58,958 nt of DNA, filler included, from Basidioascus undulatus (GCA_000826855.1; 5 parts of 5 records of this genome joined end to end with filler, not necessarily neighbours in it), one strand, 5' to 3'. Positions 24,250 through 26,745 are shown, counted from the whole stretch's first letter. The notes: generated by a model from the sequence alone, not told the origin. Numbers and translations: made by a program.

Positions 24250-26745
24250 ATGGATAGAGACTCCGCGTTCGGTGCCTCTACATATGCGCGCACGGAGGGG
24301 CGCAACACCACCAGGACGACGAGATCTGCAGTAAGTGGGGCGCAGAAGACTCTCAGTGAATCTCGACCCGAGGTTGCACGCGAACCGCCCACCGGAGGAC
24401 CCCTCTTTAACTCAGCGCTCACCCTACGGAAGGCCTGCCTCGCATATAGGGATGCGGGCGGGAGGGCGTGGGACTACGGTTCTCCCGCGGAGTACGACAG
24501 AGCTCCCAACAAGGCCTCGTTCTATCCTCTCCGCAGGTTCGACAACCCCTTCGGACACATGGTCGAGGGCCACGACGGACACTACACCGTATGCGCGCCG
24601 CCCGTAATGTGTACGAACACGGTCCAGTTTGCAAACTCCCTCACGGTAGCCCTCTCTGCTGCACTATCGAGCGGTACCTTGTGGGACTGCAGGGGTACCG
24701 TGCTGGTATCCAAGACGCGCGAGGGATGGAGTAGCGCAGGGAGGTTACTGCCCCAGACCATCTGCGACTCCCTCGACAGGCTTACGTCTGGCCCACCCGC
24801 CCCCTTGAGCGCGCACATACCTCATGCCGTGTCCGAGACGATGCACAGGGGGAGAACCAGTGCATGTCCTACGCTCTTCGACGTGCCCTCGGAGACGGGG
24901 AGGACACCTGGTCTCTTCGGCACCCTACATTCTAACCAGGCTATCGACATGTCACCCTTGGAGGAGGAGGGGGTACCCGACAGGGAGGCTAGGAAGAGGA
25001 TGCCCTGGCACAAGGGCTTCATATGTGCGGGATACACGTCCCACTCTACGGATGCAGGCAGGTCAGTGCGCGTGTGTCACAAGGTGTCTGTGAGGATATT
25101 CTCGAGGGCAACTCTAGGTGTGGTCACGGGGGCCCTACTGCGGTGCGAGCATGAGGATGGCGAGTGGCTGCTATTCTGTATGGGGGTCATGCTGCGTTGT
25201 AGCGAGGCGACGATAGTGTCGGTCTCCAAGCGCATCCAACAAACCTCGCTAGCCTTCGAGTCGAGGCCTACTGTGCACATCTCGGCCGAGTCCAAGGTGG
25301 CGGTGGTCTCAGTGTCATCGGGCGTTCTAGTCAGACCGAGTGCGGAGTACGGCGCCGTGGACTCCACTTCCCTCCACCGGTCTACGTACCCACCCAGCAC
25401 ACGGGCGCCCAGTATCGGAGCACGGGTGGAGGATCTCTTCTCCACACATTTCAGCCTCATTCCGTTCCTCACTTCAGATAGGCCCCCTAGGACTTTACTC
25501 GCGGCGGTGCAGGGTCCCCAGGCGGTGTGCGCCCCTCACCAGGTGGCATCTTCCCTCATAGCTCCGGTTCATGTGTCCAAGCCGCTCACCTACACGACGA
25601 TGGGCGAGAAGCTGATGAAAGATATGCCTGACGACCCAGAGATAGGCTTGGTGCAATGTCCGCCGGGGGAGGACCTCGTCATGTGTCTGGCAAACTACGG
25701 CGACAACTACGAGGATGCGGTCATGGTCTCCCAGGCGGCCATAGACAGGGGCCTCTTCTCATACACTTCACGAAGTACCCATATCCTCATGGCAAGTGAG
25801 CCGTGTCCCGAGGTAGGGGGAAGAGTACGCATGACCGAGCACCCGTGGTGGAAGTGCTACCCTCGTAGACGTGGGCAGAGGTCATCGCTGGTGAGACACG
25901 TAGGGAAGGACACTGTGTCGCTGGAGGAGTGCGACGGCATCGTAGTCTCGAAGTCCACAACGGCCGCAGGTGACGTGAGGGTAGAGGTAGAGAGGTATGG
26001 GCTTCCGGTCACTGGCGACAAGGTCTCCACCCCTCACGGACAGAAGGGTGTGCTTCGGATATGGTCAGAACACGACATGCCCTTCACAATGGACGACAAC
26101 GAACAGCCCGTGAGGTTCGACGTAGTGATGTCTACCTCTGCCGTGCTCAACCGGGTGACCCTCGGCCAGTACTTTGAGATGTGCTCAGGGAGGGAGGCGT
26201 GCGAGAACCCGCGACCTTCACATCCCCACGGAGCCCCATCGCTGTACGACGCGACCCCGGTCGCGGAGCCTGCCCGAGCGTGTGCCCTGTACGACGGCCG
26301 GACTGGCGAGCTCATTATGGAATCCTCGGGCGACGGGACACTGCCTGTGGCCGCCTCGTGGGGCGTTACCCGAGTATGGCAAATGTCACAGCTGTCATGG
26401 GACAAGCAGCACTACACCCACAACCCCCTGGGCAAGCACTCGCTGGCCCCTCCGGTAGGCCGCTCGAGGGGAGGAGCCGTACGACTCGGGGAGATGGAGG
26501 TGCATGCAATGGCGTCTTCAGGGCTCATCGGGTCCCTCATCGAGCTCAAGAACAGGACTGAAGTAGTGCGCGCACCTGTGTGCTCACGATGCCATAGGAT
26601 GGCGTACTTGTGCACTTGCGAAGGCGAGGGGGTGTTTGTAGACTTCGCACTTCCCCTGGGTACCATAGCCATGGACTGCGTGAGCGCCATCACTAATGGC
26701 CATGCGTTCGAGTATAGCGCATTACCGGAGGGTGAGGGCACGTAG
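24250..26745 (+). CDS. RNA polymerase second-largest subunit (RPB2/beta)-like, compact (831 aa from first ATG), divergent
   Basis: GFICAGYTS, SLIPF..DRPPR...QGPQA, GDNYEDAVMVSQAAIDRGLF, GDKVSTPHGQKG, DMPF, NRVTLGQYFE, GRSRGGAVRLGEME and C-terminal CxxC..CxC are all RPB2 hallmarks in order. Intronless. Confidence 0.95.
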   Translation: MDRDSAFGASTYARTEGRNTTRTTRSAVSGAQKTLSESRPEVAREPPTGGPLFNSALTLRKACLAYRDAGGRAWDYGSPAEYDRAPNKASFYPLRRFDNPFGHMVEGHDGHYTVCAPPVMCTNTVQFANSLTVALSAALSSGTLWDCRGTVLVSKTREGWSSAGRLLPQTICDSLDRLTSGPPAPLSAHIPHAVSETMHRGRTSACPTLFDVPSETGRTPGLFGTLHSNQAIDMSPLEEEGVPDREARKRMPWHKGFICAGYTSHSTDAGRSVRVCHKVSVRIFSRATLGVVTGALLRCEHEDGEWLLFCMGVMLRCSEATIVSVSKRIQQTSLAFESRPTVHISAESKVAVVSVSSGVLVRPSAEYGAVDSTSLHRSTYPPSTRAPSIGARVEDLFSTHFSLIPFLTSDRPPRTLLAAVQGPQAVCAPHQVASSLIAPVHVSKPLTYTTMGEKLMKDMPDDPEIGLVQCPPGEDLVMCLANYGDNYEDAVMVSQAAIDRGLFSYTSRSTHILMASEPCPEVGGRVRMTEHPWWKCYPRRRGQRSSLVRHVGKDTVSLEECDGIVVSKSTTAAGDVRVEVERYGLPVTGDKVSTPHGQKGVLRIWSEHDMPFTMDDNEQPVRFDVVMSTSAVLNRVTLGQYFEMCSGREACENPRPSHPHGAPSLYDATPVAEPARACALYDGRTGELIMESSGDGTLPVAASWGVTRVWQMSQLSWDKQHYTHNPLGKHSLAPPVGRSRGGAVRLGEMEVHAMASSGLIGSLIELKNRTEVVRAPVCSRCHRMAYLCTCEGEGVFVDFALPLGTIAMDCVSAITNGHAFEYSALPEGEGT

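Follow-up and report, generated by a model that had tools for sequence, protein, structure and literature searches.

Does the 831-residue ORF described here encode a genuine, reduced subunit of an RNA polymerase or the remains of a longer gene, and to what kind of genome does it belong? A first-pass annotation had read it as a miniaturised but active RPB2 with substitutions in near-invariant motifs. The window analysed (58,958 nucleotides in all) consists of separate contigs joined by N44-TTAATTAATTAA-N44 linkers, and the contig that carries the ORF has a G+C content of ~60%, with seven ORFs covering nearly all of its length (Table 1). As this contig comprises positions 19067-28970 only, the host-like split genes found elsewhere in the window (DPPIV, MFS) are not neighbours of the ORF. 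A search for kin of the host, made with the exon for the DPPIV N-terminus, gave no match. Rfam and tRNA scans of the whole window gave no matches. The ORF, hereafter mini-Rpb2, is uninterrupted, with no internal stops, and its frame is already open from a TTG at 24235.

Mini-Rpb2 is an RNA polymerase subunit of the Rpb2/beta type, though a highly divergent one. Pfam PF00562 (Rpb2_6) matches residues 570-653 (60.6 bits, cut-off 23.4, E 2e-16) and is the one Rpb2 domain above its cut-off; domains 1-5 (including PF04563 and PF04561) gave no match at E up to 0.01, and Rpb2_7 is weak (19.2 bits, below its cut-off of 32.1). The closest PDB sequence matches are RPC2 and RPB2 at ~1e-16. When the family alignment of 51 sequences was compared with 11 canonical RPB2s using hhalign, residues 244-809 aligned with a probability of 100 (E 2e-47), with the fork, external, hybrid-binding and clamp regions in canonical order and the mini-Rpb2 chain ending after the clamp domain. 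The fork and external regions can be aligned to canonical RPB2 at the profile level only. The AF2 model (pLDDT 84.1, pTM 0.79) retrieved archaeal and eukaryotic Rpb2 chains in Foldseek at E 9e-31, and VIA structural alignments gave Z scores of 25-26 over 550-638 aligned residues, pairing model residues 49-831 with chain residues ~31-1224. In BFVD, the model matched ascovirus and pithovirus RPB2 at E 8e-32 to 1e-30, while the ESM Atlas placed the protein among generic RPB2 clusters only. Mini-Rpb2 thus shares its fold from end to end, its region order and its catalytic-centre residues with the Rpb2 subunits of archaea, eukaryotes and Nucleocytoviricota (7nky_B, 8cro_B, vaccinia Rpo132 8p0j_B, and those of ascovirus and pithovirus).

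The motifs quoted in the first-pass annotation, and their drifted counterparts, are all present with the pairings it had proposed. GDK lies at residue 589, STPHGQKG at 593 and QMSQLSWDK at 711, and in the profile-profile alignment stretches of mini-Rpb2 pair with canonical GDKFSSRHGQKG, INPHAIPSRMT, QRLKHMVDDK and RFGEME. E488 and D489, the acidic pair of NYED, are at least 90% conserved among the 51 family sequences; in Pol II, the same pair in canonical NQED binds metal B. K591, G597 and K599 are invariant in those sequences and belong, K591 and K599 at least, to a set of eight family-invariant residues that also includes R414, Q424 and R635. R414, Q424, K591, K599 and R635 align with stretches that hold the invariant canonical residues R760, Q770, K971, K979 and R1012. 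In the C-terminal cluster, C778 and C781 are invariant in family alignment A1, and C778, C781 and C790 are at least 90% conserved in alignment A2. The complete catalytic-centre set (the ED pair, the GDK...HGQKG lysines, the PSRMT arginine and GEME) is therefore present in mini-Rpb2.

Table 1. Features of the mini-Rpb2 contig, in coordinates of the whole window
Feature	Position	Strand	Details
Contig carrying the mini-Rpb2 gene	19067..28970	.	9,904 bp; linkers N44-TTAATTAATTAA-N44 on both sides
168-aa ORF	19153..19659	+	Homologs in L086-L088
298-aa ORF, element-group core gene	19642..20538	-	Homologs in L083, L086-L088
318-aa ORF	20571..21527	+	No relatives among related loci compared
531-aa ORF, element-group core gene	21549..23144	-	N-terminal domain weakly UDG-like, then Ser/Pro/Ala-rich linker
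ORF of 387 aa at most, oriented divergently to mini-Rpb2	23259..24422	-	GTG-started frame overlaps the Rpb2 5' end
mini-Rpb2, beta/Rpb2-like second-largest RNA polymerase subunit (P0001)	24250..26745	+	831 aa; ATG at 24250, stop ending at 26745
N-terminal 43 residues of mini-Rpb2	24250..24378	+	pLDDT <50 for residues 1-43, predicted disordered; unaligned in family alignment A1, not conserved
Predicted reduced N-terminal alpha/beta module (residues ~50-243)	24397..24978	+	pLDDT >90 in full model; conserved across family
GFICAGYT (residues 256-263), counterpart of GxxCPxETPEG fork-domain motif	25015..25038	+	Paired by hhalign with WGMICPSETPEG
NYED (residues 486-489), counterpart of canonical NQED	25705..25716	+	hhalign pairing
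GDKVSTPHGQKG (residues 589-600), hybrid-binding-domain signature	26014..26049	+	Within Pfam Rpb2_6 match, residues 570-653
MSTSAVLNRVT (residues 627-637), counterpart of INPHAIPSRMT	26128..26160	+	hhalign; R635 family-invariant
RLGEME (residues 745-750), counterpart of RFGEME	26482..26499	+	hhalign; GEME 747-750
CSRCHRMAYLCTC (residues 778-790), Cys cluster of C-terminal clamp/anchor domain	26581..26619	+	Pairs with VCNKCG... in hhalign
739-aa ORF, convergent with mini-Rpb2	26749..28968	-	Start codon 2 nt from contig end

The size contrast drawn in the first-pass annotation is borne out: the 11 canonical RPB2 representatives measure 1132-1264 aa, and 73 of 80 giant-virus loci retained from IMG/VR yielded RPB2 ORFs of 1055-1719 aa. 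IMG/VR yielded no member of the mini-Rpb2 family; the 80 retained loci are at most 27% identical to mini-Rpb2, over residues 377-808, and do not reach its N-terminal 376 residues. Exactly 255 residues precede the fork motif, close to the ~255 first counted, and the shortening is family-wide. In the 25 of 51 aligned members with a strict fork motif, in which the spacing was counted, 178-279 residues (median 230) lie before it, compared with 465-587 in nine canonical RPB2s, and 530-592 lie after it, compared with 663-708. Thus, the C-terminal two thirds of the protein are moderately trimmed, whereas the N-terminal third is cut to ~200 residues, about half the normal module size.

In cellular enzymes the N-terminal third of Rpb2 is formed by the protrusion and lobe, much of which had been thought to be absent here. 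The module that takes their place (~500 aa in canonical Rpb2) is indeed about half size, and hhalign detects no resemblance between the N-terminal 200 aa and canonical RPB2 (probability 0.1). The structural alignments of the full model, however, begin at residues 49-50, opposite Rpb2 residues 31-38, and continue from there, which indicates that a reduced N-terminal module is still present, so that the loss of much of the protrusion and lobe is borne out in part. When folded alone (residues 44-262, 8-sequence alignment), this module gave an unusable model with a pLDDT of 39.1. Nor did a separate gene resembling the N-terminal domains of RPB2 emerge from 30 other ORF families and singletons of the mini-Rpb2 contig and seven related loci, all of which scored a probability of 1.1 or less, in what is a weak test given that the N-terminus of the family itself is equally undetected by the canonical profile.

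A decayed copy of a full-length gene would be expected to have longer close homologs, and these are equally short, so the reduction is a trait of the family. Mini-Rpb2 has relatives in 65 clusters at E<1e-30 (best E 5e-163), mostly of 745-900 aa, and the 14 relatives of near-equal length (758-861 aa) are 29-37% identical to it. The other 50 sequences share 72 columns with a conservation of 80% or more, and mini-Rpb2 keeps 69 of these, where members range from 53 to 72. By its sequence, mini-Rpb2 is an intact member of this family and not a decayed copy. One relative has an in-frame TAG. Long relatives (961-1678 aa) had been considered as Rpb2 proteins with extra N-terminal domains, an interpretation that was rejected: PolB and mini-Rpb2 form a single ORF in five of the nine scanned.

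A tree of family, canonical and giant-virus RPB2 sequences placed all 29 sampled members in one clade (SH-aLRT 100) on a long stem (1.61), outside a clade of canonical and giant-virus RPB2s (97). A long-branch artefact may account for this placement of the family, and P0129 was flagged on these grounds. The suggestion that mini-Rpb2 is intermediate between giant-virus and yeast-plasmid polymerases holds for size (831 aa, against more than 1050 aa and the ~693 aa of the beta-like part of the plasmid protein discussed below); evolutionary intermediacy is not apparent from the tree, which covers family, canonical and giant-virus sequences and sets the family apart from the other two.

The genes that accompany mini-Rpb2 point to the kind of genome in which it resides. 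The convergent 739-aa ORF combines a TFIIS-type zinc ribbon (QARSADEP) with KADGE and RxDK motifs, which we take to be those of a guanylyltransferase, and a DLGAGRGQS motif, presumably methyltransferase motif I. It matches Pfam PF01096 at 21.5 bits (cut-off 21) and LEF-4 at 18.4 bits, below cut-off, and is a probable mRNA capping enzyme. The 531-aa ORF reaches 19.4 bits for Pfam UDG, below the cut-off of 24.3, and has homologs in the related loci L083, L084, L086 and L087 (tblastn), to which BLASTP clustering added L088. Searches of PDB with the capping-enzyme and UDG-like family profiles found nothing at E up to 1, that with the P-loop ATPase family profile gave three chance-level matches only (E 0.13-0.63), and a single-sequence search with the 739-aa ORF likewise gave chance-level matches only; the capping-enzyme, UDG-like and ATPase assignments consequently depend on motifs and sub-threshold Pfam scores. 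The 298-aa ORF has no Pfam match and no usable match in the ESM Atlas. The 387-aa ORF has no Pfam match either, nor relatives among the related loci compared, and since its GTG-started frame overlaps the 5' end of mini-Rpb2, its true start is probably an internal ATG.

A capping-type gene also adjoins mini-Rpb2 in L081, L083 and L084, and the order UDG-like gene, mini-Rpb2, capping gene is conserved in L083 and L084. The related contigs are gene-dense, 18-42 kb long, and add two further enzymes, a mini-Rpb1 and a family-B DNA polymerase. Mini-Rpb1 was found in four of the nine family loci (L084 and L086-L088) as a protein of 600-650 aa with DYDGDE or DFDGDE at the DxDGD site, compared with ~1300-1900 aa for canonical Rpb1. 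It is encoded by a separate gene, several genes away from mini-Rpb2, and has little left beyond the DxDGD metal-A site and an N-terminal Cys/His cluster; its profile matches RNA polymerase largest subunits at E 3.6e-10, and Pfam Rpb1_2 is above cut-off in two of the four loci. In Aspergillus hancockii, mini-Rpb2 and mini-Rpb1 lie on a single contig of 11,935 bp. The 9.9-kb contig studied here ends on both sides and holds no DxDGD match that would indicate a beta'-like gene. The DNA polymerase of the related loci matches PF00136 at E 3e-35 to 4e-38 and resembles polymerases of the archaeal, delta, alpha and poxviral kinds. Genes for a capsid or for packaging were not recognised.

Taken together, we consider it likely that a small dsDNA virus-like element, and not the host, carries a minimal RNA polymerase of two subunits, of which mini-Rpb2 is the beta subunit. 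The lineage of the element is apparently undescribed. In a literature search covering sources outside subscription journals, we found no description of such an element group. By homology, mini-Rpb2 and mini-Rpb1 would form the catalytic cleft, to which mini-Rpb2 would contribute the fork motif, the hybrid-binding domain with its ED pair and invariant Lys and Arg residues, and the C-terminal Cys-rich domain. In Pol II, these elements serve the second metal, the NTP and RNA 3' end, and clamping onto the partner subunit. The family-B DNA polymerase of the relatives and the adjoining capping-enzyme-like protein suggest that the element may copy, transcribe and cap its own genes, like cytoplasmic DNA viruses and yeast killer plasmids, and the TFIIS-type zinc ribbon at the N-terminus of the capping protein may dock it on the polymerase. 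Mini-Rpb2 itself is probably active, as judged from the conserved catalytic residues, the 69 of 72 family columns kept and the purely synonymous differences from variant copies described below.

These variant copies, found in the assembled contigs of public sequencing runs, also bear on the best-surviving alternative, namely that the contig represents a viral fragment endogenised in a fungal chromosome and already dead or dying, in which the ORF is open by recency only and no polymerase is made. Runs X2 and X3 contain diverged copies (90-95% identity) as well as a variant in which positions 23155-24755 are replaced by 39 other letters, with loss of the first 168 mini-Rpb2 codons. Defective copies thus exist, and the element itself may be integrated or present in several copies. 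Decay is likewise suggested by the neighbouring ORF w298, for which 11 of the 27 listed differences from variant copies are non-synonymous, one of them a stop. Endogenous copies do exist in fungi, as some mini-Rpb1 relatives sit on contigs of 153.6 kb and 8.2 Mb, and the G+C content of the mini-Rpb2 contig is near that of the other contigs of the window. Against this, all five listed differences in the mini-Rpb2 gene are synonymous, third-position changes, as are, in being synonymous, all three listed for the capping gene; all seven ORFs of the contig are open and tightly packed; conservation at family columns is typical of members; and no host gene or repeat flanks mini-Rpb2 on the contig. 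Moreover, a near-identical contig, covering 0.96-0.99 of sampled words, occurs in runs of two studies (2014 and 2025). No RNA runs are listed among the public runs that contain it. We regard a dead fragment as improbable and retain a functional virus-like element as the preferred reading.

An origin from a cytoplasmic linear plasmid of the yeast-killer type (a VLE helper plasmid) that spread to filamentous fungi is more doubtful still. The logic is shared, in that a small element encodes its own reduced multisubunit-type RNA polymerase together with a capping enzyme, which in VLEs binds the polymerase (PMC6211774). A Nucleocytoviricota origin has been put forward for the RNA polymerase and capping genes of VLEs, which have recently been found outside budding yeasts (PMC13348850). 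In the pGKL2 polymerase (K2ORF6p and K2ORF7p) the conserved beta regions are retained but stand closer together, and a large part of beta' is lacking (PMC6211774). There are also differences. The beta-like part of K2ORF6p spans residues 1-693 and is fused to part of beta', a fusion that does not tolerate splitting (PMC6211774), whereas mini-Rpb2, compared here by published description, is larger and unfused, its family having separate genes for the two subunits. VLE DNA polymerases are protein-primed and fused to a terminal protein (PMC13348850), whereas the PF00136-type polymerase of the elements is not of the protein-primed kind; and VLEs, at 9-13 kb, are smaller than the elements and, at more than 75% A+T (PMC4431711), differ in composition from the mini-Rpb2 contig (~60% G+C) and from the elements at large, which are not A+T-rich. 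A VLE-type helicase was not recognised in the elements.

Least credible is a LEF-8-type subunit of a baculovirus- or nudivirus-like (Naldaviricetes) virus: although those polymerases (LEF-8, LEF-9, LEF-4 and p47) follow the same small viral design, with an Rpb2-like subunit of ~850-900 aa that is similar in length to mini-Rpb2 and shares its GxKx4HGQKG motif, a short DxDGD-type Rpb1-like subunit and an associated capping enzyme, and although the capping gene has its sub-threshold LEF-4 score and a homolog in L084 matches the LEF-5 C-terminal domain at 19.2 bits, also below cut-off, Pfam LEF-8 (PF04941) gave no match at E up to 0.01, baculovirus, hytrosavirus, filamentous-virus and nudivirus proteins in BFVD reached just 4e-13 to 6e-6 compared with 8e-32 for NCLDV RPB2, the scan of 54 ORFs turned up neither pif genes nor any further baculovirus core family, and the organism names of the records are fungal, not arthropod.

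Those names indicate where the virus-like elements reside. All ten organism-named public records, from nine organisms in four classes, belong to Pezizomycotina (filamentous ascomycetes), with lineages checked for six of the named organisms. Two of the records hold mini-Rpb2 (Aspergillus hancockii and Hypoxylon sp. FL1284) and eight hold mini-Rpb1 (Acidomyces, Fusarium irregulare, Ophidiomyces, Exophiala, Circinaria, A. alliaceus, A. hancockii and Hirsutella). On this basis the hosts are probably filamentous ascomycetes, a group of fungi from which, to our knowledge, no double-stranded DNA virus has been reported. It is tempting to go further, and we put forward as a tentative proposal, somewhat short of probable, that filamentous ascomycetes harbour a lineage, so far undescribed but deep and widespread, of dsDNA viruses or of virus-like replicons that lack a capsid, to which mini-Rpb2 belongs. 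Its members would be small (~18-42 kb), would have relatives in soil metagenomes and in the transcriptome of a protist, and would each encode a minimal RNA polymerase of eukaryote type with two subunits, a family-B DNA polymerase and a capping enzyme tagged with a TFIIS ribbon.

If so, no autonomous dsDNA elements of such a kind would have been known before in Dikarya apart from the killer plasmids of budding yeasts, and the Nucleocytoviricota-like transcription module acquired by those plasmids may have its long-sought relatives here. The family also bears on how the giant-virus and killer-plasmid transcription modules are related. With a beta subunit of ~800 aa and a beta' of ~600 aa, the polymerase would rank among the smallest natural versions of the archaeo-eukaryotic enzyme, and would offer a compact subject for structural work and for defining the need for the protrusion, the lobe and most of the clamp. 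The finding also draws attention to a family of gene-dense contigs of 18-42 kb, which encode their own transcription, capping and replication enzymes and occur in the public assemblies of nine or more filamentous ascomycetes in four classes. Among the named carriers, at least two are isolated strains, in which a free cytoplasmic replicon, a particle-forming virus and an integrated element can be directly told apart.

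The reading frame of mini-Rpb2, the 831-aa beta/Rpb2-like RNA polymerase subunit P0001, is open already from a TTG at 24235. Stop linkers divide the window, and mini-Rpb2 therefore lies on a 9,904-bp contig (19067-28970). The pieces past the first linker measure 9904, 9899, 9896 and 9893 bp and look like size-sorted contigs; the window strings together separate contigs, and neighbourhood across a linker has no meaning. Seven ORFs cover nearly all of the mini-Rpb2 contig, which has a G+C content of ~60% and no physical link to host DNA within the window. In the remaining pieces, long ORFs are scarce and split-gene fragments (DPPIV, MFS transporter) occur, as in an intron-bearing eukaryote. 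The DPPIV-like split gene, which carries a Pro/Ser/Leu-rich repeat inside an intron-like stretch, is consistent with a fungus-like host.

Features of the window discussed in the text
Feature	Position	Strand	Remarks
mini-Rpb2 ORF	24250 (ATG) to 26745 (stop)	+	831 codons, uninterrupted
Capping-enzyme-like ORF	26749-28968	-	739 aa; convergent with mini-Rpb2
UDG-like core protein	21549-23144	-	531 aa; N-terminal domain weakly UDG-like
Linkers	18967-19066, 28971-29070, 38970-39069, 48966-49065		N44-TTAATTAATTAA-N44, six-frame stop linker
DPPIV-like gene	17331-18570	+	Several short exons; different contig from mini-Rpb2

All motifs quoted by the first-pass annotation, which had described a miniaturised RPB2, were found in order, at residues 256 (GFICAGYT), 486 (NYED), 589 (GDK), 593 (STPHGQKG), 627 (MSTSAVLNRVT), 711 (QMSQLSWDK) and 745 (RLGEME). 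Pfam recognised only the hybrid-binding domain Rpb2_6 (60.6 bits vs a cut-off of 23.4, residues 570-653), domain 7 remaining sub-threshold (19.2 vs 32.1), and a PDB sequence search returned RPC2, RPB2 and archaeal subunit B (E ~1e-16 to 1e-14) over residues 561-799 only. Profile-profile alignment against 11 canonical RPB2s gave a probability of 100 (E 2e-47) and paired P0001 residues 244-809 with residues 505-1196 of the reference, a 1224-aa protein in which Pfam domains 3, 4, 5, 6 and 7 occupy residues 478-542, 590-651, 670-739, 746-1116 and 1118-1210, respectively. Eight residues are invariant in a 51-sequence alignment of the family (A2), R414, Q424, K591, K599 and R635 among them, and the stretches holding these five align with those holding the canonical invariants R760, Q770, K971, K979 and R1012. 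Tests of membership in the beta/Rpb2 superfamily by hybrid-binding domain, catalytic-centre residues and overall fold were positive, and the favoured reading of mini-Rpb2 is as the beta subunit in a two-subunit RNA polymerase, minimal and encoded by the element itself.

A word-indexed search found 39 proteins at E <=0.001 (7,999 scored), including 14 relatives of nearly full length (758-861 aa; 29-37% identity; E 5e-163 to 8e-84). Most of the remaining 25, all at E 6e-6 or weaker, are full-length bacterial beta subunits, and two are shorter fragments. Exhaustive searching of representatives returned 2,163 proteins at E <=0.001, 486 at <=1e-10 and 65 at <=1e-30, the near-full-length ones being mostly 745-900 aa long. 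With P0001 set aside, the remaining 50 sequences of A2 agree to >=80% in 72 columns; P0001 matches the consensus in 69 of these (members score 53 to 72). This, and the similarly short length of its relatives, speaks against mini-Rpb2 being a decayed copy. In IMG/VR, 423 pattern matches included 390 confirmed ones, of which 80 were kept, all canonical giant-virus RPB2s with <=27% identity to P0001 over residues 377-808; RPB2 ORFs of 1055-1719 aa were present in 73 of these 80 loci. JGI and ENA metagenomes yielded nine loci of the mini-Rpb2 family (L081-L089). We rejected the reading of relatives of 961-1678 aa as Rpb2 proteins with fuller N-termini: in five of nine scanned (P0085, P0091, P0092, P0097, P0100), a family-B DNA polymerase and mini-Rpb2 were called as a single ORF. 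In L089, a single in-frame TAG interrupts mini-Rpb2 (1128-3740) where its N-terminal module meets the remainder (PFW*GLYG). This codon and the fused ORF calls could reflect sequencing error, pseudogenes or stop read-through.

An AlphaFold2 model of P0001 built from A2 had a mean pLDDT of 84.1 and a pTM of 0.79, with pLDDT >90 across residues 50-330. Foldseek placed archaeal and eukaryotic Rpb2-type chains on top (E 9e-31); among viral models, ascovirus, pithovirus and mimivirus-like RPB2 led (8e-32 to 3e-28), and baculovirus, hytrosavirus, filamentous-virus and nudivirus proteins matched at 4e-13 to 6e-6. VIA-align gave Z scores of 25-26 with 550-638 residues aligned, from model residue 49-50 (Rpb2 31-38) through the C-terminus. 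In strict-motif carriers only (25 of 51 family members, nine of 11 canonical sequences), the stretch ahead of the fork motif is about half as long, at 178-279 aa (median 230) vs 465-587 aa, and the part after it measures 530-592 aa vs 663-708 aa. Given these latter lengths and the profile alignment of residues 244-809, everything past the start of the fork is kept and moderately trimmed. No sequence resemblance to canonical RPB2 was detected in the first 200 residues (probability 0.1). In certain VIA rows, 553 residues aligned within model residues 50-719, just 476 of them profile-alignable, which would imply, from alignment extents, that at least ~77 N-terminal residues superpose on the Rpb2 N-terminal region. 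Folded alone, the N-terminal module reached a pLDDT of 39, and the remnant may be protrusion-like or lobe-like. The 30 other ORF families and singletons, from the mini-Rpb2 contig and seven related loci, all gave probabilities <=1.1 against canonical RPB2; this search, weak where sequences diverge this far, turned up no N-terminal part encoded by another gene.

We placed the family in a tree (IQ-TREE quick search, LG+C20; 799 columns, 53 rows) of 29 of the 51 A2 members, hand-picked for spread, 11 canonical sequences, five bacterial beta subunits as outgroup and eight giant-virus ORFs, 65 of 73 having been removed as >=55% identical to a retained row; LEF-8 (the baculovirus Rpb2-like subunit) and yeast-plasmid sequences were left out. 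The mini-Rpb2 family was monophyletic (SH-aLRT 100, stem of 1.61 changes per column); every canonical and giant-virus sequence fell in its sister clade (97), and P0001 was placed in a six-member subclade (95). Given a long-branch warning, the position outside the canonical clade may be an artefact. Yeast killer plasmids and baculoviruses have reduced polymerases of their own, to which the mini-Rpb2 enzyme may be likened in its mode of working. The yeast-plasmid enzyme differs in architecture, namely in its beta/beta' fusion and the type of DNA polymerase: K2ORF6p consists of beta (residues 1-693) fused to part of beta' (PMC6211774), and the plasmid DNA polymerase is protein-primed (PMC13348850). 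LEF-8 has no profile match to mini-Rpb2 and its structural matches are weaker. Canonical Rpb2 is set apart by domains 1-2, length and tree position. The earlier observation stands, and the view of an active, reduced polymerase intermediate between giant-virus and yeast-plasmid enzymes finds partial support: it holds as to reduction and, judging by sequence, probably activity, and as to "intermediate" for size only. A description of the family was not found in the full-text literature searched, which lay mostly outside subscription journals.

The convergent 739-aa ORF begins with a TFIIS-type zinc ribbon (residues 7-37; PF01096, 21.5 bits vs a cut-off of 21) that keeps the QARSADEP acidic hairpin, followed by KADGE...RxDK and DLGAGRGQS, all conserved in the family alignment; CxxC...DE...CxxC is kept in the L084 and L087 homologs. 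We take KADGE...RxDK to be guanylyltransferase motifs, DLGAGRGQS a methyltransferase motif and the QARSADEP ribbon to be of TFIIS type. PDB profile searches with this ORF or its family gave no support for the capping-enzyme assignment. To our knowledge, no protein that joins a transcript-cleavage-factor ribbon and a guanylyltransferase-methyltransferase has been described; the ribbon may tether capping to the polymerase. The water-activating motif of UDG is of the GQDPY type, and the 531-aa protein has SQSPY at this site (family consensus GQSPY), with Ser in place of the Asp. Behind the UDG-like domain comes a long Ser/Pro/Ala-rich linker, and the protein could, speculatively, be a non-catalytic UDG fold comparable to the poxvirus D4 processivity factor.

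Gene order is conserved, with homologs of the 739-aa ORF directly downstream of mini-Rpb2 in L081, L083 and L084, and the 531-, 298- and 168-aa ORFs also have homologs in related loci. The core genes of the group encode mini-Rpb2, the capping-enzyme-like and weakly UDG-like proteins, a family-B DNA polymerase, a P-loop NTPase, an APH-like kinase (above the Pfam cut-off only in L086, weakly in L084) and mini-Rpb1. The DNA polymerase (719-750 aa; PF00136, E 3e-35 to 4e-38) has archaeal PolB, Pol delta, Pol alpha and poxvirus polymerases as closest PDB relatives. A 599-651-aa protein with CxxHxxCxGH close to its N-terminus and HPE...D(Y/F)DGDE(V/L)H is mini-Rpb1, the predicted beta'/Rpb1-like partner; it scored above the cut-off for Pfam Rpb1 domain 2 in L086 and L087, and a PDB search with its profile reached the largest subunits of RNA polymerases (E 3.6e-10). 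In L086, L087 and L088, three motif classes, chosen by eye prior to counting, lie 10-55 nt 5' of start codons on the coding strand: 10 of 13 copies of AAACATTT fall within 80-nt upstream windows vs ~0.5 expected, as do 9/15 of AAT[CG]CATT and 5/7 of AATC[AG]ATTA. L083 and L084 lack these motifs, which resemble the promoter classes of an element that transcribes itself.

Among 30 mini-Rpb2 representatives looked up, two are organism-named, both hypothetical proteins, of Aspergillus hancockii (11,935-bp contig) and Hypoxylon sp. FL1284 (19,079-bp contig); one further representative is a transcript in a collection of marine-protist transcriptomes. A mini-Rpb1 profile search returned 115 proteins, mostly of 545-690 aa, with eight named carriers (Acidomyces sp., Fusarium irregulare, Ophidiomyces ophidiicola, Exophiala oligosperma, Circinaria calcarea, Aspergillus alliaceus, A. 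hancockii and Hirsutella rhossiliensis), all Pezizomycotina; six lineages that were checked fall into four classes. The locus tags of the two A. hancockii subunits differ by six and their contigs are equal in size, so both presumably lie on one contig. The longest contigs within clusters recur at ~18.9-19.2 kb and 26.55 kb and reach 42 kb, which suggests complete element genomes in the ~18.9-42 kb range. Mini-Rpb1 relatives on long contigs of A. alliaceus (153.6 kb) and H. rhossiliensis (8.2 Mb, a 377-aa fragment) (P0350, P0354), and the distant mini-Rpb2 relative P0137 on a 2.1-Mb contig, suggest that integrated or endogenised copies exist beside short stand-alone contigs. The element that carries mini-Rpb2 is best assigned to a lineage of small virus-like dsDNA elements that occur in association with filamentous ascomycetes and seem not to have been described before.

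Public runs of two studies contain 0.96-0.99 of sampled words of the mini-Rpb2 contig; one of these runs may be where it originated, and the listing showed none from RNA. In two runs, X2 and X3, contig copies 90-95% alike coexist, and a variant has 23155-24755 (1.6 kb) swapped for 39 other letters, affecting a 387-aa ORF and the first 168 mini-Rpb2 codons; several related or defective copies therefore coexist. Among the 40 of 382 differences to variant copies that were tallied, all five within mini-Rpb2 and all three within the capping gene are synonymous, compared with 3/4 in the 168-aa ORF and 16/27, one change being a stop, in the 298-aa ORF, which may hint at purifying selection on the polymerase.
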